Source: Bacteroidales bacterium (GTDB lineage Bacteria; Bacteroidota; Bacteroidia; Bacteroidales; UBA932). Taken from it: a stretch of 64,000 nt of DNA. Of the stretch, positions 13,227 to 25,627 are shown piece after piece (position 1 is the stretch's first letter; each line of letters starts with the position of its first letter). The notes below the pieces were generated by a model, which was given only the letters and a program-made list of their open reading frames with translations, searched no databases and had not been told where the DNA came from. A program made the position numbers and the translations under genes. Location of the stretch: contig JAQYTJ010000024.1 in the NCBI GenBank assembly GCA_028724885.1, positions 2,748-66,747 of the forward strand, written 5' to 3'.

Positions 13227-16217
13227 ATGAAGCTTAAACTGTTAGCGGCGGTCATTATCTTGGCAATTATGCTGCCTGCGTCAATGCAGGCTCAGAACAA
13301 GCAAAAAGATGATTTCCGGCAGGCAATGGATCTTTACGAACACGGAATGTTCGAAAGAGCCGAAAGCATATTCAATGAAATCTATTCAAATACTGGCGAT
13401 GAAACAGCCCTCGGGTACAAGGCTCTTTGCTCTGTTCGGCTGCAAGAAGTTGGCTATGAGGCTGTTGCAAATGAATATATCATCAATCATCCATATTCCA
13501 GCCTCGTGCCGCAAATACATTTCTACAAAGGACTGAACATCTTTGACGACCAAAATTATCATGATGCCCTTGTGGAATTCAGCCAAGTGGATACGAAAGA
13601 CTTGAATGTTTCCCAGATTCCCGAATATGAGTTCAAGTACGCCTATTCAAAATTTGGAGCAGGCGACTATGATGGCGCCAGAATGGAATTCGAGAAAGTG
13701 GAAAATATGCCTATGTCGGACTATACTGCACCTTCAAGATACATCCTAGGCTATATCAATTACTCCCACAAGCAGTTTAAGGCTGCTTACGGCTGGTTCG
13801 AAAAATCCGAGAAAGATCCTCGTTTCGAAGAGCTTTCAAAATATTACAAGGTGGAGTGCCGCTTCATGATGAGAGATTATGACTATGTAATCGAGAACGG
13901 CATAGATATGATGGAAAACGCCCCTGGCAACAGGCGGTCTCATCTGGCAAGAATCATCTCAGAGTCTTATCTTGCCCAAGGGGATAACGACAACGCCAAG
14001 AAATATTACGATATGATAAACCATAGCAGCAGGGATAGGGATCGTGATGATTTTTTCTATGCAGGGTCTCTGTATTATGCTGCTGGCGACTATAAGGGTG
14101 CCATCGACAACTATTCGATGATGAAGGAACGCACGGATTCCATCGGGCAGATAGCCAATTACGAATTAGGCTACAGCTACATCCAGACCGGCAACAAAGT
14201 GGCGGCGATGGATGCGTTCAAGGCCGCTTCGGAATATTCATTTAACTCGAAGGTTCAGGAAGACGCTCATTTCAATTACGCTAAGCTCTCATTTGACTTG
14301 AACCATAACCCTTCCGTATTCGATGATTATATGAAGAAGTACGGCAAAGCTAAAGGGGACCAGATTTACAGCTATATGGCTCTTTCGTGCCTTTACAATC
14401 ACGACTATTCAGGAGCGGTGGATGCCTACAGCCATATAGACCTTTTGGACGATGACCAGAAGGCCAATTATATGAAAGCCAATTACCTAAGGGCTCAACA
14501 GCTAATCGGTGGAGGCTCCTGGAAAGACGCAATTCCTCTGCTGAAGGCCGCTTCATTTTATTCGAACAAGCACGATGGCTTCAATCAGCTAGCTCGCTAC
14601 TGGCTTGGAGAATCACAATTCCGCAGCGAACAATACTCTGCCGCCGCCGAAGCTTTCAAGGACCTTTACAATATTTCGGCCCTGGACAAGCAAGAGGAAG
14701 GAAAACTACTGCCGTACAATATAGGCTGGTGTTATTTCAAGAATAAGGAATATGCAGCTGCGGCCAAATGGTTCGATGAATATCTTGGGACGAGGAACCC
14801 TGAGATGGGAGAAGATGCTGCCCTTAGGCGGGCAGATTGCGATTTCGTTAATAAGGACTATGCGAATGCAATAAAAGAATATGAGAACGCTATGCGGCGT
14901 TTTGCCTATGCGGACAACCTATATCCTTATCTGCAGTGCGGAATTGCCTACGGCCTGTATGGGAAAAATGACAAGAAGATAGAGTCGCTGTCTCGGGCAC
15001 TCACGTCTAAGCCTTCGGCACAATATTACCCAGAGACCATGTACGAGCTCGGTCGGGCTTATGTGGCAGGTGGGAAGAGTGATGATGCGGTGAGCTGCTA
15101 TGAGAAGCTACGCAAGAATTCTTCTGACAAGACCATAAACGCTCGCTCCTTGATAGAGCTTGGAATGATAGCTAGGAATAAGTCAGACAATGATAAGGCT
15201 CTGGGCTATTACAAGCAGGTAGTTGAGGAAATGCCTGGAACTGAATATGCTCAGAATGCCCTTCTTGCCATAGAGTCAATATATCAGACTCAAGGGCGCG
15301 CAGATGAATATCTTGACTATGCCGATAAGGTGGGTGCTAACTTCGGCAAGACCGACAGCGAGAAAGATGACATGTACTTTGCTGCCGCCGAGCAGGTGTT
15401 CATGACCGAGAATTATGAAAAGGCCTCCCAGTCACTTCAAAATTATATGAGCCGTTATCCGAACGGAAAGAATATCGCCAAGGCCGATTATTATATGGCT
15501 GAATGCGAGAGGAATACTGGCAAGAAGGAGCAGGCCTGCGACTGGTATGCGAAAGCACTGTCAGCAGACCCGAATGCGGCATATTCAGAAATGGCTCTCC
15601 TTCGCAGCGGCCAGCTCTATTATGAGATGGAGCGTTTCAACGAGGCATACAGGAATTACGCTGCCCTAGTTCAGAAAACCAGCGATGCCGACATGACCAA
15701 CGCCGCTAGGCTTGGACTCATGAGATCGTCGTACAAGGCTCAGGATTGGCAGTCTGCCATCAGCCAGGCAGAAAAGGTGAAGGCATTGAAAAAAGTCACA
15801 GCTGATGAAAGCAGGGAGGCGGAGTATGTTTGTGCTAAGTCTTATCTCTCTACTAATGAAAGAGATAAGGCATTCGATATGTTCAATAAGCTAAGCGCTA
15901 AGCCTGCGACTGATGAAGGCGCCGAGGCTACATACATGCTCATTCAAGATGCATACGATCAAGGTGAATATGCTTCCGTTGAATCTAAGGTCTATAAATT
16001 CGCGAAAGATGCTCCAGATCAGTCTTACTGGCTGGCTAAGGCATTCATAACGCTCGGTGACTCATTTGCCGAGAGGGACGATTACAAGCAGGCTAGGGCG
16101 ACTTTCGAAAGCGTCAGGAATGGCTATAAACCAGAAAAAGGCACTTCTGATGATGTCCTGGATAATGTGAGGATGAGGCTTGAGAAGCTTAATAATATAG
16201 AATCAGGCAATGAATAA
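13227..16217 (+). CDS. Large exported tetratricopeptide-repeat protein
   Basis: Signal peptide ending in MQA; many TPR-like helical pairs (A..Y..G..YF...Y..A) over about 1000 aa. Confidence 0.9.
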   Translation: MKLKLLAAVIILAIMLPASMQAQNKQKDDFRQAMDLYEHGMFERAESIFNEIYSNTGDETALGYKALCSVRLQEVGYEAVANEYIINHPYSSLVPQIHFYKGLNIFDDQNYHDALVEFSQVDTKDLNVSQIPEYEFKYAYSKFGAGDYDGARMEFEKVENMPMSDYTAPSRYILGYINYSHKQFKAAYGWFEKSEKDPRFEELSKYYKVECRFMMRDYDYVIENGIDMMENAPGNRRSHLARIISESYLAQGDNDNAKKYYDMINHSSRDRDRDDFFYAGSLYYAAGDYKGAIDNYSMMKERTDSIGQIANYELGYSYIQTGNKVAAMDAFKAASEYSFNSKVQEDAHFNYAKLSFDLNHNPSVFDDYMKKYGKAKGDQIYSYMALSCLYNHDYSGAVDAYSHIDLLDDDQKANYMKANYLRAQQLIGGGSWKDAIPLLKAASFYSNKHDGFNQLARYWLGESQFRSEQYSAAAEAFKDLYNISALDKQEEGKLLPYNIGWCYFKNKEYAAAAKWFDEYLGTRNPEMGEDAALRRADCDFVNKDYANAIKEYENAMRRFAYADNLYPYLQCGIAYGLYGKNDKKIESLSRALTSKPSAQYYPETMYELGRAYVAGGKSDDAVSCYEKLRKNSSDKTINARSLIELGMIARNKSDNDKALGYYKQVVEEMPGTEYAQNALLAIESIYQTQGRADEYLDYADKVGANFGKTDSEKDDMYFAAAEQVFMTENYEKASQSLQNYMSRYPNGKNIAKADYYMAECERNTGKKEQACDWYAKALSADPNAAYSEMALLRSGQLYYEMERFNEAYRNYAALVQKTSDADMTNAARLGLMRSSYKAQDWQSAISQAEKVKALKKVTADESREAEYVCAKSYLSTNERDKAFDMFNKLSAKPATDEGAEATYMLIQDAYDQGEYASVESKVYKFAKDAPDQSYWLAKAFITLGDSFAERDDYKQARATFESVRNGYKPEKGTSDDVLDNVRMRLEKLNNIESGNE

Positions 16218-17988
16218 TATTAAAAGAATATATTTCACCGCAGCTGCGCTAGGCGCATGTGCTATTTCTTTCGGCCAGAATCTGAACCCTACGGTCGAGG
16301 TTACGAATACCTATGAAGGGGATCCATCGCATATTCAGAAACCTTTCACTGAGATGGTAGTCCCGGATTCGTTGTTACGATTCGATTTGGATTTCAATTA
16401 TCAGGTTTTCGATAATCCTTATGACGCATCGTATAGTTTCAAGCCATACATGCTGAACGTTAGGCCTGGCAGGGACGCTTGGCGAGGCAAGGGCCTCTAT
16501 CTGAAGGCAGGAGCGGGCTACTCGCTTCATCCGCAGCTGGATTTCGTATGGAGTCCGGAGAGGAAAGGGCCCTTCCAGTTCAGCATCTATGCTAATCACA
16601 GATCTTATTTCGGAAAATATCATGCGATTGTTCCTAAACTGATGTCTGGCCCACAGGGTGGGTACGAGCTGAAATCCAATGGGGATTCGTATAAAGGCCA
16701 CGATGCTCTTACAAGAGCTGGCTTCGATGGCCGGTACAGCTGGGATTCAGGCGCGTTTGCTTTCGGCATCGGTTATTATGGCTTGAATACTAAAGACACG
16801 CTTACGTCTCAGAGCTACAATGCGGCTGATGTCTGGCTGAACTTGCAGTCTTACGATAGCCCGGACGCTCAGTTCTATTATGATGCGACCATCAAAGGAC
16901 GCTTCGGGAAAAACAATCTGGAATATTCCTCAGGCCTCGGCAACCTTTATGGCAAATCCACATTGAATGTGCTGAGTGAATTAGGGATAGCCGAAGGGAG
17001 ATGCGATTACAAGGAAACCGTAATGTCGCTGGACGGCAATGTGGGTTTTGCCGTGAATGGACATAAGTTCTTGGTCGGCATCGATGGCGCATACGCATCA
17101 TATTCAGACTTGCTGCAGGGTGCATACGGGGTGTTCGCTGTCACGCCTAAGTACGTGTTCGAGAAAGGCAAGCTGAAAGTCAATGTCGGCCTGCGCATTC
17201 AGCATTTTTTCAGCAGTAATGACGGGAAGGACCTCTTGGAGCCAGAAGAGTGGGATGGAGGAGCCCTGCTGAACCCGGACATTTACGCTAGCGTCGCTAT
17301 AGTCAATGGTTTCCAGCCTTATGTACGGATATACAATGGCACGAAAATCAACACAATGTCTTCTGTGCAGGAAGGAAGAAATCATTATTTCAATCCGCTG
17401 TGCTTCAGTTTAGGCAATGATACGGGTTACGACCTCAGTGCTGGTTTCAAAGGAGATTTCTCGACGGCATTCCACTATGACGTGAACGCCAGGCTGAATT
17501 CGTATGACGAAACCTTGATGGATTACGTTGCTTATTCTGGGAAAGAGTATTACGTTCCAGCATATTTGCGTAGCGAATGCGACGTTTTTTCTGTAAATGC
17601 ACTCATGAATTTTAGATTGAAAAGGTTCAAGGTCGATGCCGACTTTCATTATTACCATACTAAGTTTGAAGAAGACAGCCGCCATGCTTTTGCCATGCCT
17701 GACTTCACTTTCGGCCTGAAAGCTGTTTACGACATAACGAGCCGGATATATTGTGGGGCGAATATGAGTTATGTACACAAGAGAGAAGGGGATTTCTACG
17801 TTAATTCCCAAGGTGGTTATTCAATTCCAGGTTGGTTCGATTTAGGCATTTTGGGAGGATATCAGTTCAACCGAAAGCTCGGCTTCTGGCTGGAAAGCGG
17901 AAACCTTCTGGGCCAGAAAGTTCAGCCGAATCCGTTCTACGTCGAAAAAGGTCTCTGGATTACGGCGGGCTTAACCTTGAATTTATAG
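16210..17988 (+). CDS. Outer-membrane beta-barrel protein (TonB-dependent-receptor-like, apparently without plug)
   Basis: Signal peptide ending in SFG; alternating aromatic beta-strand pattern; C-terminal AGLTLNL; overlaps the TPR stop. Confidence 0.72.
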   Translation: MNNIKRIYFTAAALGACAISFGQNLNPTVEVTNTYEGDPSHIQKPFTEMVVPDSLLRFDLDFNYQVFDNPYDASYSFKPYMLNVRPGRDAWRGKGLYLKAGAGYSLHPQLDFVWSPERKGPFQFSIYANHRSYFGKYHAIVPKLMSGPQGGYELKSNGDSYKGHDALTRAGFDGRYSWDSGAFAFGIGYYGLNTKDTLTSQSYNAADVWLNLQSYDSPDAQFYYDATIKGRFGKNNLEYSSGLGNLYGKSTLNVLSELGIAEGRCDYKETVMSLDGNVGFAVNGHKFLVGIDGAYASYSDLLQGAYGVFAVTPKYVFEKGKLKVNVGLRIQHFFSSNDGKDLLEPEEWDGGALLNPDIYASVAIVNGFQPYVRIYNGTKINTMSSVQEGRNHYFNPLCFSLGNDTGYDLSAGFKGDFSTAFHYDVNARLNSYDETLMDYVAYSGKEYYVPAYLRSECDVFSVNALMNFRLKRFKVDADFHYYHTKFEEDSRHAFAMPDFTFGLKAVYDITSRIYCGANMSYVHKREGDFYVNSQGGYSIPGWFDLGILGGYQFNRKLGFWLESGNLLGQKVQPNPFYVEKGLWITAGLTLNL

Positions 17989-18000
17989 AAATAATTTAGT

Positions 18001-18047
18001 AAATTTGTCTGTTTTATGGGATGACCTAAAACAGACAAATTTTTTTG
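18001..18047 (+). terminator. 16-bp perfect inverted repeat; terminator of the TPR-OMP operon overlapping the gyrB promoter
   Basis: AAATTTGTCTGTTTTA-N10-TAAAACAGACAAATTT followed by a T-run; TAAATTTG -7 box at 18000-18007. Confidence 0.75.
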
Positions 18048-18048
18048 A

Positions 18049-20070
<2,022 letters not shown>

Positions 20071-20084
20071 AAATTCGCAATAAT

Positions 20085-21353
20085 ATGTACAACGACATTT
20101 TTGCAAGGATTTCTAAAGATACTGGCGGCCCAATCGGCCAGTATTATGACGATGGCTATGGTTATTACATGTTCCCTCGGCTGGAGGGGGAATTAGGCCC
20201 TCACATGAAGTTCAATGGGGTGGAGATGCTCAACTGGAGCCTCAATAACTACCTCGGCCTGGCGAACGACCCAGAGGTACGCAAGGCAGATGCCGATGCA
20301 GCCAATGAGTGGGGGCTGGCCTATCCTATGGGCAGCCGAATGCTGACCGGCCAAACTCGCTACCACGAGGAGCTGGAGAGGCGTTTCGCAGCCTTTGAGA
20401 AGAAGGAGGATGCCTTCCTGTTCAATTTCGGTTATCAGGGAATAGTTTCAGCCATTGATGCCCTTACTGGTCGTCACGACGTGATTGTGTACGATGCTGA
20501 GGCTCATGCATGTCTGCTGGACGGAATTCGCCTGCACGTGGGCGATAGCTTCAAATACAGACACAATGACATCGAGAGCTGCGAGAAGGTGCTCTCCAGG
20601 GCTTGCAAGCTGGCAGAAGAAAATGGCGGCGGCGTGCTGCTCATCACAGAAGGCGTGTTCGGAATGACCGGTGCGCTCGGAATCTTGGACAAGATCGTAG
20701 AACTCAAGAAGAAATATCAATTCAGAATATTCGTGGATGATGCTCATGGTTTCGGCATCATGGGCGAGCATGGCAGAGGCACCTCTGAACATCTGCACTG
20801 CATGGACGGCATCGATCTTTACATCGGAGCCTTTGCGAAAAGCATGGCCAGCATAGGCGGCTTCATTGCAGGTCCGAAGGACATAATCAAGTATCTGAAG
20901 TTCAACATGCGCTCTCAGATGTATGCCAAGGCGCTTCCGATGCCTCTTGTCATAGGAAACATGAAGCGGCTCGAAATCATCGACAGCCCTAAGGGCGATT
21001 CTTTGCGCAAGCAGCTTTTCACAGTTACGAGGGCCCTCCAGGATGGATTCCGCAAGGAGGGATTCGACATAGGGCCGGCAGAGGCCTGCGTCTCGCCTGT
21101 GCACGTGAAGGGCGGAATCGGCGAGGCCACTCATATAGTCAAGGATCTTCGCGAGAACTACAAGATATTCTGTTCCATAGTCATCTATCCGGTGATTCCG
21201 AAGGGAATGATAATATTCAGAATCATTGCTACTGCTGCCCATACTCTCGAAGACGTGGACTACACGCTCAATGTTTTCAAGGAGATAAGGGAGAAGCTTG
21301 ACAAGGGATACTATTCCAACGAGGAGATTGCTACAATGACAGTCATGAAATAA
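20085..21353 (+). CDS. PLP-dependent alpha-oxoamine synthase, cysteate acyltransferase (SulA/CapB/CFAT) type
   Basis: SLNNYLGLA, DAEAHAC, VDDAHG, PLP Lys in AFAKS (K252). N-terminus DIFAR..GGPIGQY and SQMYAKALP match the sulfonolipid-type clade as recalled, rather than SPT/BioF. Confidence 0.78.
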   Translation: MYNDIFARISKDTGGPIGQYYDDGYGYYMFPRLEGELGPHMKFNGVEMLNWSLNNYLGLANDPEVRKADADAANEWGLAYPMGSRMLTGQTRYHEELERRFAAFEKKEDAFLFNFGYQGIVSAIDALTGRHDVIVYDAEAHACLLDGIRLHVGDSFKYRHNDIESCEKVLSRACKLAEENGGGVLLITEGVFGMTGALGILDKIVELKKKYQFRIFVDDAHGFGIMGEHGRGTSEHLHCMDGIDLYIGAFAKSMASIGGFIAGPKDIIKYLKFNMRSQMYAKALPMPLVIGNMKRLEIIDSPKGDSLRKQLFTVTRALQDGFRKEGFDIGPAEACVSPVHVKGGIGEATHIVKDLRENYKIFCSIVIYPVIPKGMIIFRIIATAAHTLEDVDYTLNVFKEIREKLDKGYYSNEEIATMTVMK

Positions 21354-21364
21354 ATTCTCTGAAT

Positions 21365-22186
21365 ATGAATCCTGAATATTTCAGAGACAAAGTTATTATA
21401 GTAACTGGAGCCAGCTCGGGAATCGGGTTGGCTTCGGTGCGTCTTTTTGGCTCATTCGGGGCGAATGTCGTGATGGCTGCGAGATCCTATGAGAAATTGC
21501 TTGAACTGGCTCCGTCGGTGAACGGGAATCCTGAAAAAGTGCTCTGCGTGAAGGCCGACGTGAGCGTCGAAGAAGATTGCAAGAACCTCATTGCAAAGAC
21601 TGTCGAAAAATTTGGAAGAATTGACATACTGGTCAATAACGCCGGTATTTCGATGAGGGCTATGTTCAAAGATATGGACTTGTCTGTCATTAAAAGGCTG
21701 ATGGACGTGAACTTCTGGGGCACGGTTTATTGCACTAAATTCGCCCTGCCTTACCTGCTTGGTACGAAGGGGCAGGTCGTAGGAGTCATTTCTACCGCAG
21801 GATATTGTGCTTTGCCAGCCAGGACAGGATATTCCTCTTCAAAATATGCCATCAGGGGTTTCTTGGACACTATTCGCATCGAGCATATGAAAGATGGCCT
21901 GAACGTGCTTGTCTTTGCTCCTTGCTACACTTCTTCCAATGTTCGCAATGCGGCTCTCACCGCCAATGGCTCAGCACAAGGCAGCACTCCACTCAACGAG
22001 GGCAGGCTGATGAGCGCAGAAGAGTGTGCGATGCATCTGGCAAAGGCTCTTGGGAAAAGACGTTCGGAAGTCATTCTGGGTGCACTGGGCAAAGCTTCCG
22101 TGTGGGTACACAGGCTTTTCCCAAGGCTGATGGATCGCCTGACTTATAAATATATTGCTAGAGAAACGGGAAGTCCCTTCAAATAA
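21365..22186 (+). CDS. Short-chain dehydrogenase/reductase (candidate 3-ketocapnine reductase)
   Basis: TGASSGIG, NNAGI, catalytic YSSSK; 11 bp after the acyltransferase. SDR fold is certain, substrate inferred. Confidence 0.85.
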   Translation: MNPEYFRDKVIIVTGASSGIGLASVRLFGSFGANVVMAARSYEKLLELAPSVNGNPEKVLCVKADVSVEEDCKNLIAKTVEKFGRIDILVNNAGISMRAMFKDMDLSVIKRLMDVNFWGTVYCTKFALPYLLGTKGQVVGVISTAGYCALPARTGYSSSKYAIRGFLDTIRIEHMKDGLNVLVFAPCYTSSNVRNAALTANGSAQGSTPLNEGRLMSAEECAMHLAKALGKRRSEVILGALGKASVWVHRLFPRLMDRLTYKYIARETGSPFK

Positions 22187-22195
22187 TTAATCGAG

Positions 22196-24271
22196 ATGAA
22201 ACTGCCACGTCTTCCAAAAAACTATCTTCGGATTATTCTTCCGCTTTTCGCGCTTTTCCTCGTTCTTCTTTTCATTTTTCCGAGGAATGCGAAATTCAGC
22301 TACGACTATAGGAAAGGTTCGCCATGGAATCATGAGACGCTGATTGCCCAGTTTGATTTCCCTATCTTGAAATCTGACGAGCAGCTTAGGGAGGAGCGTA
22401 GCGCGAACCGTTCCGTTGAGGTTCCGTACTATGTCTATAAGGAAGATGTGGTGACAAACAGCAGGAAAGCTGCCGACGAGGCTGACCTGGGGGACTATTC
22501 TTGGCTGAGGCCGATAATCGTGTCCTCCATGCTGGACATCTATTCCAGCGGGGTTGTGAGCGACGAGGGCGTGAAGCTGGACTCTAGGGCAAAGAAAAAC
22601 CCTGATGCGGTTTTATATATTCATAAAGATAAGAGAGTCACCAAGAAGCCTGTTTCAGAGGTGCTTAAAGAATCAGATGCTAAAGCCAGGCTTCTTGACG
22701 ATGTTGCTAAGAAAGCAAAAGGTGCCAATGCAGATTCGGTGCTGAATGATAGTGGCCTCTATAATCTCATCTCGCCTAATCTTGAATATGATGCCAAGAC
22801 GACCGAGCTGGTGAACTCGCAGAGATATTCTCAGATTTCGCCTACGCAAGGGTTCGTGAGCGCTGGGCAGCTCATTGTCTCAAAAGGCGAGATAGTCACT
22901 GCCGAGGTGGCTCAGATTCTTGATTCATACAAGGTTGAATATGAGGCCAGCATGGGTTACGGCGGCCCGAAAGTGTTATTCTGGTTAGGGAATGCTCTCA
23001 TAGCTGCGTTGTTGGCGTTCTTGATATTCCTAGCACTCTATTTTTCAAATAACAACATATTCAAAGAAAATAACAAGTTCTATTATGTGCTGTTCGTTTT
23101 TCTCTTGATTACCGTTGTAACGCTTATAATCAATAAATTCGCTCCAAGATTCATCTACATGGTGCCGTTCACCCTGACTGCCCTGTTATTGGAAGCGTTT
23201 TTCAAGAATAAGTTCATAATTCCGCAATGTTTCATATCTCTGCTGCCGCTTCTGATTTTCGCCAATAACGGAATCGTGCTTTATGTGATATTCATTTCAG
23301 GCAGCCTGGTCGCAATATATACTTTTAGATTTTTCAATCATAGCTGGATGCAGTTCATCTCCGCAATGATAGTATTCTGCACGATGGCTCTTACGTATTT
23401 CGGCTTCAGGATGATTGACATGGTGAATGATAACCCTTACCAGGCCCTCCTCTTCCTTTTCGTGTCTTCTATGCTCTCTGTGGCTGGGTACCCGTTGGTT
23501 TATCTTTTCGAGAGGATGTTCAACCTTGTGTCGAATTCTCGCCTGAGGGAACTGTGCGACACGAACAATCCGCTGCTGAGGCAGCTGGAGCATCTTGCGC
23601 CTGGCACTTTCCAGCATTCTCTGCAGGTCATGAATATGGCGGATGCGGCTGCGCGCGCCATTGATGCGAACCCTTTGCTGGTAAGCGCAGGAGCATTATA
23701 TCACGACATTGGCAAAATGAAAAACCCACTATGCTTCATTGAAAACGCCAGCATGAATCCAGGAGGGGCGCATTATCACGATCATCTAACCCCGAAGGAG
23801 AGCGCAAAGGCCATAATCAAGCACGTTGATGATGGCTTGGAGCTGGCGGATAAATATAATCTGCCTGAAGTGATCAGGGAGTTCATCAGAACCCACCAGG
23901 GGACATCCGCAACGACATATTTCTATAATAAATATCTCAACGAGGGTGGGGATCCTTCGGATGTGGCCGATTTCTTCTACCATGGGGAAAAGCCTTACAC
24001 AAAGGAACAGACCATACTTATGATATGCGACACTATGGAAGCTGCCTCTAGAACGTTGAAAGACAATTCCCAGGAGGCCTTGTCTGAATTCGTCGAGCGG
24101 ATGGTGGCTATGAAGGTGGATGCGGGGCAGCTGGATAATTCCATTATCTCCATAAGGCAGCTATGCACCCTTAAGCAAGTCTTGAAAGATTATTTAAGGC
24201 AAATATTCCACGAGAGGATAGAATACCCTAACCGTAAGCCCGGTATTGGCAGATTGGGGATAAATGTTTAA
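22196..24271 (+). CDS. 7TM-HDIG phosphodiesterase (PgpH-like, putative c-di-AMP hydrolase)
   Basis: N-terminal TM, extracellular domain, 7 TM helices, APGTFQHS, YHDIGK, HQGT, ICDTMEAA. Confidence 0.88.
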   Translation: MKLPRLPKNYLRIILPLFALFLVLLFIFPRNAKFSYDYRKGSPWNHETLIAQFDFPILKSDEQLREERSANRSVEVPYYVYKEDVVTNSRKAADEADLGDYSWLRPIIVSSMLDIYSSGVVSDEGVKLDSRAKKNPDAVLYIHKDKRVTKKPVSEVLKESDAKARLLDDVAKKAKGANADSVLNDSGLYNLISPNLEYDAKTTELVNSQRYSQISPTQGFVSAGQLIVSKGEIVTAEVAQILDSYKVEYEASMGYGGPKVLFWLGNALIAALLAFLIFLALYFSNNNIFKENNKFYYVLFVFLLITVVTLIINKFAPRFIYMVPFTLTALLLEAFFKNKFIIPQCFISLLPLLIFANNGIVLYVIFISGSLVAIYTFRFFNHSWMQFISAMIVFCTMALTYFGFRMIDMVNDNPYQALLFLFVSSMLSVAGYPLVYLFERMFNLVSNSRLRELCDTNNPLLRQLEHLAPGTFQHSLQVMNMADAAARAIDANPLLVSAGALYHDIGKMKNPLCFIENASMNPGGAHYHDHLTPKESAKAIIKHVDDGLELADKYNLPEVIREFIRTHQGTSATTYFYNKYLNEGGDPSDVADFFYHGEKPYTKEQTILMICDTMEAASRTLKDNSQEALSEFVERMVAMKVDAGQLDNSIISIRQLCTLKQVLKDYLRQIFHERIEYPNRKPGIGRLGINV

Positions 24272-24276
24272 CTTTG
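24269..24276 (+). promoter_or_regulatory. -7 promoter box for tig-clpP-clpX
   Basis: TAACTTTG overlapping the upstream stop codon, 34 nt before the tig ATG. Confidence 0.55.
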
Positions 24277-24310
24277 AACCCATTTTTTGAATATAAAATA
24301 TTAATATACA

Positions 24311-25627
24311 ATGGAAGTCACAAAGAATCAAATCGATGATTTGAACATCGAACTTACAATTGCCTTGAAGGCAGATGATTATGCCGATGCGGAAAGAAAA
24401 AGCTTGGCTGTATATAAGAGAAAGGCGGATTTCAAAGGATTCCGCAAGGGCATGGCTCCGATCAGCCTTGTCAAGCGGATTTACGGTGAGCAGGCGCTGT
24501 ACGAGGCTATCAACGGCATCGTTGCCGAGCAGCTAGATAAATTCATAAAGGACAATAATCTGAAAGTATTAGGCGAACCTCTCCCTAGCGAGAACCAGAA
24601 AGAGAATGACTGGAAGGACGGAGCAGATTTCGAATTCAAATTCGACATTGGCCTGTCTCCAGAGCTGAATTTCGAGGTTGACGAGTCAGACAAATTCACT
24701 TATTACGACATCGAAATATCCGATAAGGAGAAAGCAGATGCGAAAGCGGATCTGCTCCGTCAGCATGGCGATTTTCAGGAGTGCGAAAAGGCCGGAGAGG
24801 ATGATCTCCTGACGGTAGACCTCAGGCAAGGCGAGAAGTCGGTGGAAGGCGCTTACGTGAGCATACGCAGCGTGGCTGATTCGCAGAAGAGCCTGTTCGT
24901 AGGCGTCAAAGCCGATGATAAGTTCACCGTAAACGTGAACGAGGCCTTTGCTAATGAGGTAGACAGGGCTAATCTGCTGAAAGTCAAGAAAGAAGACTTA
25001 TCTGGAATGGAGCCTGAATGGGAGGTCACCGTCGTGAACGTAAAGACGTTCGCCCCTGCCGAGGAGAATCAGGAGACATACGACAAGATTTTCGGGCAAG
25101 GCGTCGTGACTACTCCTGAAGAATTCGAAGTCAGAATAATCGAGAGGCTTCAGAACAGCCACAAGCAGGATTCGGACTACAAGCTGAATCAGGATATTCG
25201 TGAATATTATGTCAATAAAGCTGGCATTTCGCTTCCTGATGCCTTCCTGAAAAGATGGCTTCTGGAGAATAACAAAGAGAAAGTCACCAAAGAGGATGTC
25301 GATAAAGAGTTTGAAGGCTTCGCAAAAGATTTCAAATGGCAGCTCGTGCGAGGCTATATCCTCAAGAAATTCGACGTGAAGATTAATGATAAGGACTTGC
25401 TTGATGCCGCAAAAGGCTATGCGGCATATCAGTATGCCATGTACGGCATGGGAAATCTCTCGGAGGAGATACTCAAAGACGCAGCACATCATTTCCTCCA
25501 GGACGAACGTCACTCTCGCAATATCGAGGAGTTCGTAGAGAACGATAAGGCAGTGGCTGCCGTGAAAGAGCATGCTACCCTTGAGGGTAAGAAAATCTCA
25601 TTTGAGAAATTCGGGAAGCTGAAATAA
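24311..25627 (+). CDS. tig: Trigger factor
   Basis: GFRKGMAP ribosome-binding motif; position before clpP-clpX. Confidence 0.93.
   Translation: MEVTKNQIDDLNIELTIALKADDYADAERKSLAVYKRKADFKGFRKGMAPISLVKRIYGEQALYEAINGIVAEQLDKFIKDNNLKVLGEPLPSENQKENDWKDGADFEFKFDIGLSPELNFEVDESDKFTYYDIEISDKEKADAKADLLRQHGDFQECEKAGEDDLLTVDLRQGEKSVEGAYVSIRSVADSQKSLFVGVKADDKFTVNVNEAFANEVDRANLLKVKKEDLSGMEPEWEVTVVNVKTFAPAEENQETYDKIFGQGVVTTPEEFEVRIIERLQNSHKQDSDYKLNQDIREYYVNKAGISLPDAFLKRWLLENNKEKVTKEDVDKEFEGFAKDFKWQLVRGYILKKFDVKINDKDLLDAAKGYAAYQYAMYGMGNLSEEILKDAAHHFLQDERHSRNIEEFVENDKAVAAVKEHATLEGKKISFEKFGKLK

Follow-up and report, generated by a model that had tools for sequence, protein, structure and literature searches.

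We examined a 64,000-nucleotide stretch of Bacteroidales DNA (the window), in which an ATG-initiated open reading frame (ORF) at 20085-21353 lies in a compact run of genes. Judged by homology, its product is very probably a PLP-dependent homodimer, a cysteate acyltransferase belonging to the SulA/CapB/CFAT family (the window CFAT). It almost certainly forms the first committed intermediate in bacterial sulfonolipid synthesis and is not a serine palmitoyltransferase (SPT). The coordinates and the residues K252 and K282 given in the original prediction proved exact on re-reading the ORF and its codons. The gene is followed by one for a classical SDR, and further genes predicted to belong to the same or a parallel pathway lie on other contigs of the genome (Table 1).

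Table 1. Positions of the features discussed here. Entries without a contig name refer to the window; C8 and C40 are other contigs of the same genome.
Feature	Position	Strand	Basis
Predicted cysteate acyl-ACP (fatty) acyltransferase, SulA/CapB/CFAT family, PLP-dependent alpha-oxoamine synthase, 422 aa	20085..21353	+	ORF, homology, tree, reciprocal best hit with SulA
K252 in AFAKS, predicted PLP Schiff-base lysine	codon 20838..20840 AAA	+	aligns with SulA K251, CO-CFAT K250
K282 in SQMYAKALP, CFAT-diagnostic lysine	codon 20928..20930 AAG	+	aligns with SulA K281, CO-CFAT K280
Classical SDR, 273 aa, predicted NAD(P)H-dependent 3-ketocapnine reductase	21365..22186	+	PF00106, NF004825; 11 nt past CFAT stop
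Cysteate synthase	C8:17460-18749 (TIGR03844 match 17499-18647)		408 bits versus cut-off 324.9
SPT + SDR module	C40:24623-26621 (locus L111 4623-6613)	-	NF047600, 588 bits; SDR 264 aa, 4-nt overlap

Gene neighbourhood

The CFAT and SDR genes are placed between gyrB and a gene for a 7TM-HD (HDIG) membrane protein, all four on one strand and separated by gaps of 14, 11 and 9 nt (18055-24271). Because the genes are so tightly packed on one strand, CFAT and the SDR may be co-transcribed with gyrB; co-transcription of the SDR with CFAT is probable from the gene arrangement. A promoter and terminator scan of 17800-24600, which was not tuned to Bacteroidota, gave no convincing match and is uninformative on the operon, because it returned no more matches than shuffled sequence. 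Upstream of these genes, a 592-aa ORF (16210-17988, +) overlaps the end of a TPR/YbgF-like gene and has no Pfam or NCBIfam match.

The window protein groups with SulA and CapB

The sole Pfam domain of the window CFAT is the generic class I/II aminotransferase domain PF00155 (E 5e-34). In a PDB search, Alistipes finegoldii SulA (7U7H) is the top match, with E 5e-171 and 572 bits, and second comes Capnocytophaga ochracea CFAT/CapB (28EH) with 528 bits, both being CFATs with known structures and biochemistry; after a wide gap follow the best SPT, Kbl and BioF structures, with 217, 190 and 130 bits. The alignment to 7U7H pairs residues 4-414 with its residues 23-431 and has no large gaps, and the fold-type I PLP alpha-oxoamine synthase domain is full-length. 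SulA (alfi_1224) can thus be aligned end to end with the window CFAT, and the catalytic N, H, D, H and R are common to both. Aligned with the reference enzymes, the window protein is 60.6% identical to SulA (over 409 residues) and 58.3% to CapB, as compared with 31-34% for SPTs and 26-31% for Kbl and BioF. SulA and the window CFAT are also reciprocal best hits, at 491 bits versus 209 for the next match.

Using NCBIfam models, we found that none of the SPT, Kbl, BioF and ALAS equivalogs gives the protein a score as high as its curated cut-off. The nominal best match is NF047600 (SPT, CFB group) with 276 bits versus a cut-off of 640; the Kbl models TIGR01822 and NF005394 give 237 versus 493 and 274 versus 460 bits, and the BioF model TIGR00858 gives 265 versus 426. 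Since all of these scores are under the cut-offs, the window CFAT is none of SPT, Kbl or BioF by these models.

We then placed the protein in a maximum-likelihood tree of 36 sequences, comprising SulA, CapB, Sphingobacterium multivorum SPT, E. coli BioF, three Kbl or BioF/Kbl structures, the three paralogues of the window genome, and further homologues sampled at family and order level. A CFAT clade of 25 sequences, supported at 100/100 on a stem 2.12 substitutions per site long, unites the window protein with SulA and CapB, and the SPTs form a separate clade (100/99). The phylogeny proposed along with the original prediction therefore groups the window protein with SulA and CapB, apart from SPT, Kbl and BioF; clustering with SPT or BioF did not occur.

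Active-site residues are of the CFAT type

Pocket residues were taken from the lists in the SulA paper (PMC9304779) and in the 2026 report of CFAT structures with bound cysteate (PMC13692747). In the alignment, N54, G83, F115, G116, Y117, H141, C143, E189, D218, H221, A251, K252, K282 and R379 are all present in the window CFAT. The protein is CFAT-type at every position that discriminates CFATs from SPTs (F/T, Y/F, E/D, A/S, K/A, and C versus mostly S), and its F115, Y117, C143, E189 and A251 correspond to F113, Y115, C141, E187 and A249 of C. ochracea CapB, also called CO-CFAT (28EH, 28FA). CapB comes from another class, Flavobacteriia, and belongs to the same clade; 15 of the 19 tabulated PLP and substrate-pocket positions are identical in CapB and the window CFAT, among them every one that distinguishes CFATs from SPTs.

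The column of K282 holds Lys in all 25 CFAT-clade sequences and Ala in six of six SPTs; elsewhere, it holds Asn in the two Kbl sequences tabulated and Thr in E. coli BioF. The earlier description of this site as occupied by a small residue in SPT and BioF is therefore exact for SPT, but approximate for BioF and for Kbl. The accompanying claim that a lysine at about position 281 serves the sulfonate goes beyond the literature. The SulA K281A variant shows normal cysteate binding with ~1000-fold lower activity, and its authors ascribe to the side chain a structural function, the closure of the active site (PMC9304779). When cysteate is bound to CO-CFAT, the sulfonate is contacted by Asn52, His139 and Lys250 (PMC13692747).

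These residues bear on whether the ORF could instead encode an SPT, which would make 3-ketosphinganine for sphingolipids. We consider this extremely unlikely. S. multivorum SPT (3A2B), a serine-using enzyme, is built on the same fold-type I alpha-oxoamine synthase scaffold and has the same proposed catalytic cycle (PMC9304779), but it is 31% identical to the window CFAT, has Ala at the 282 site and T/F/D/S where the window protein has F/Y/E/A, and sits in the separate clade. The shared fold and catalytic scaffold, together with the nominal first place of NF047600 among the NCBIfam matches, are what the SPT assignment has in its favour; the score far under the cut-off of that model, the low identity to SPTs in general and the position outside their clade argue against it. 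In addition, a true SPT orthologue is already present on contig C40, and characterised CFATs have little or no activity with serine (PMC13692747).

Within the CFAT clade, the window protein differs from the SulA pocket by three changes in the alignment: T248 to A249, F246 to I247 and A83 to S84. All three variants are common inside the clade, and the T248-equivalent position is Ala in 11 of its 25 sequences. In SulA the T248 side chain hydrogen-bonds the PLP phosphate, and the CO-CFAT T247A variant retains 19-48% activity (PMC13692747). Given these departures, and a determinant of cysteate selectivity that is not settled in the literature (PMC9304779, PMC13692747), one could picture a CFAT-clade enzyme whose amino or sulfonated substrate is not cysteate, or whose acyl donor is unusual, and which forms a long-chain base other than 3-ketocapnine. 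Such a specificity is very unlikely here: every position separating CFAT from SPT is CFAT-type, CFAT co-occurs tightly with cysteate synthase and a KCR1-type reductase (see below), and the six diverse CFATs tested in the literature all used cysteate (PMC13692747).

Cysteate synthase and paralogues in the window genome

The genome from which the window comes measures 2.74 Mb in 58 contigs and is 98.5% complete. Among public genomes, it is most closely related to MAGs of uncultured Bacteroidales (UBA1680, RUG142; 98% identity) and to Candidatus Cryptobacteroides spp., obtained from rumen, poultry, horses and digesters. The genome encodes three alpha-oxoamine synthases: the window CFAT, an SPT on contig C40 and a Kbl on contig C14. 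The SPT matches NF047600 and scores 463 bits against S. multivorum SPT, with Ala at the K282 site, and the Kbl scores 685 bits against TIGR01822. Because the genome has separate SPT and Kbl genes, both of these roles are already filled. A. finegoldii, in contrast, is without SPT and has just SulA and a Kbl-like enzyme (PMC9304779).

Proteins that share its 90% cluster are called 'pyridoxal phosphate-dependent aminotransferase family protein' at NCBI and 'glycine C-acetyltransferase' at JGI, and NCBIfam has no CFAT model. The JGI label would make the ORF a Kbl, and SulA's own PDB title, '7-keto-8-aminopelargonate synthetase-like', recalls 8-amino-7-oxononanoate synthase (BioF). Either identity has a practically negligible probability: the scores (237-274 bits where the Kbl cut-offs are 460-493, and 265 where the BioF cut-off is 426), the identity of 26-31%, the split in the tree and the bona fide Kbl elsewhere in the genome all point away from it. 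The JGI name is probably a mis-annotation of what we propose to be a CFAT.

A search of the genome for a cysteate synthase, suggested with the original prediction, found one above the curated cut-off on contig C8. Taken together with the scores, the tree, the pocket residues and the reciprocal best hit with SulA, this gene backs the prediction of a SulA/CapB-type cysteate acyltransferase as opposed to an SPT. Across 151 species of the family, CFAT and cysteate synthase are both present in 76 and both absent from 60, with CFAT only in 14 and the synthase only in one, counts that are uncorrected for shared ancestry.

Among contigs of at least 20 kb, C8 has the lowest GC (0.446, where the mean is 0.477), and its tetranucleotide distance has rank 37 of 39. 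The C. ochracea genes for CapA and CapB look adjacent by their consecutive accessions (PMC12927429), whereas in the window genome the cysteate synthase is on a different contig from CFAT. In congeners, the cysteate synthase gene is found on CFAT's contig, about 76-79 kb off, so the C8 gene probably belongs to the window genome.

We also searched the genome with E. coli CysD, CysN, CysC, CysH, CysI and CysJ by tblastn and obtained no real matches. The CysN matches, at 24-29% identity, are probably other GTPases. The genome encodes a sulfite-requiring cysteate synthase without an obvious assimilatory route to sulfite.

A KCR1-type SDR gene directly downstream of CFAT

The translation of the downstream SDR contains the cofactor and catalytic motifs TGASSGIG, NNAG and S...YSSSK. 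Orthologues of this SDR (E <= 1e-50) are present in 59 of the 151 family genomes, every one of which is CFAT-positive, and in 51 of these 59 the two genes share a strand and the SDR gene comes directly after CFAT, 7-268 nt away. In a sample of 301 species drawn evenly across Bacteroidales, the SDR was found in 166 of 228 CFAT-positive genomes versus 6 of 73 CFAT-negative ones, numbers that are likewise uncorrected for shared ancestry. Outside the family and its nearest neighbours, the SDR is usually unlinked to CFAT.

A. finegoldii, whose genome we recognised in the sample by a 100% match to SulA, resembles the window genome in having an orthologous KCR1-type SDR. There is one clear orthologue, 50% identical to the window SDR, and the two are reciprocal best hits (271-276 bits versus 54-84 for the next SDRs). 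It is encoded 1.85 Mb from sulA, whereas only 11 nt separate the two genes in the window. The A. finegoldii protein contains HGSIVGISSVAGLHGLPGRTGY, which Fig. S10 of PMC11211663 shows for AF_1 (WP_009596236.1); the match was made to this printed segment and not to the accession, and AF_1 corresponds to AF_KCR1 by the numbering in that paper. AF_KCR1 is one of three KCRs validated in vivo and in vitro (PMC11211663). Because its reciprocal best hit carries the AF_1 segment, the window SDR is, by sequence comparison, an orthologue of this experimentally validated 3-ketocapnine reductase, CFAT-linked here and unlinked in Alistipes.

The three active KCRs of A. finegoldii are encoded by scattered, unclustered genes, and none has been singled out (PMC11211663). 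The linkage of CFAT and SDR genes described above points independently to a KCR1-type enzyme as the reductase proper to this pathway. The CFAT enzyme itself is not new, and the modest gain of the present analysis is this operon evidence on which reductase serves the pathway. A homologue search with the window SDR returned close relatives only, all named 'SDR family oxidoreductase' with no functional name. The 20-residue segment of Ornithobacterium CapC given in a supplement, the only part compared, has no resemblance to the window SDR.

A predicted route to sulfonolipids

These genes suggest the following route. Cysteate synthase would convert O-phosphoserine and sulfite to L-cysteate. By homology with SulA and CO-CFAT, the window CFAT would hold PLP on K252 as an internal aldimine, from which L-cysteate would displace the lysine to give the external aldimine. 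A long-chain acyl-ACP would bind next, and a decarboxylative Claisen-type condensation would yield 3-ketocapnine (3-dehydrocapnine), CO2 and holo-ACP, with K282 of the partner protomer closing the composite active site. The adjacent SDR would then reduce 3-ketocapnine to capnine, and an N-acyltransferase would complete sulfobacin-type sulfonolipids.

Predicted sulfonolipid and sphingolipid modules in one genome

Within the family, genomes with CFAT tend to lack SPT and vice versa: of the 151 genomes, 67 have CFAT only, 42 SPT only, 23 both and 19 neither. The sample includes nine species of the window's genus, of which six have CFAT only, two have SPT only, and the window genome alone has both. 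Its SPT gene on C40 forms a module with an SDR gene that follows it with a 4-nt overlap. The product of this SDR gene includes ISSLGGLIGLPFQGLY, which resembles the stretch of BT_0972, a 3-ketosphinganine reductase, given in the supplement of PMC11211663.

Mis-binning of C40 was considered and rejected on composition (GC 0.465; tetranucleotide distance rank 20 of 39). Because the CFAT and SPT modules are both present, and C40 has no compositional sign of mis-binning, the window species may make both sulfonolipids and sphingolipids.

The observations on the two modules can be joined in one proposal: that the AF_KCR1-type SDR is the dedicated physiological 3-ketocapnine reductase, as its operon frequency (51/59) and its distribution over the order (166/228 versus 6/73) would suggest, and that the window species is a dual producer, using CFAT with the KCR1-type SDR for one lipid class and SPT with the BT_0972-like SDR for the other. 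We regard this joint proposal as evenly balanced between right and wrong. If true, the KCR1 type would be the choice that settles among the several scattered, promiscuous reductase candidates reported in Alistipes and Chryseobacterium.

Distribution of CFAT across Bacteroidales

Sulfonolipids such as capnine and the sulfobacins are immunologically active lipids, and work on them in the gut has mainly been tied to Alistipes and Odoribacter. The original prediction held that they are reported in few gut Bacteroidales genera. This holds for published lipid reports, which cover few, but the gene is widespread. CFAT orthologues occur in 90 of the 151 family species, with 56-83% identity among the matches listed, and paralogues are cleanly apart at 38% or less. 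At the order level (E <= 1e-100), we found CFAT in 228 of the 301 species and in 163 of 208 genera, with 57-73% identity among the matches listed.

CFAT genes are thus the rule and not the exception in the sampled Bacteroidales, which bears on the metabolomic attribution of sulfonolipids in animal guts. Because these genes are so common across the order, the window CFAT counts as an unexceptional representative of a known enzyme family, from an uncultured gut and rumen lineage. Homologues of CFAT, CYS and SDR have already been mapped in large surveys of human-associated genomes (PMC11525784, PMC11211663), and a literature search found no paper joining Cryptobacteroides with sulfonolipids. The present analysis assigns a sulfonolipid capacity, predicted from genes, to an uncultured Bacteroidales lineage related to Candidatus Cryptobacteroides.

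A different gene order in related genera

Of the 14 family genomes with CFAT only, eight have a divergent PALP-family gene with a weak TIGR03844 match, which in at least six of them shares a contig with CFAT and lies within ~3 kb of it. In genera with CFAT but without canonical cysteate synthase (locus L107, 685-3976, in genome G144; also G014, G066, G022, G002 and G062), CFAT is directly followed by this PALP gene and then by a different SDR of 268 aa. The PALP product has 406 aa, is 23% identical to the window genome's cysteate synthase and scores 97-135 bits against TIGR03844. This CFAT-PALP-SDR arrangement resembles an alternative sulfonolipid cluster of three genes, in which the PALP product may be a cysteate synthase of a second type.
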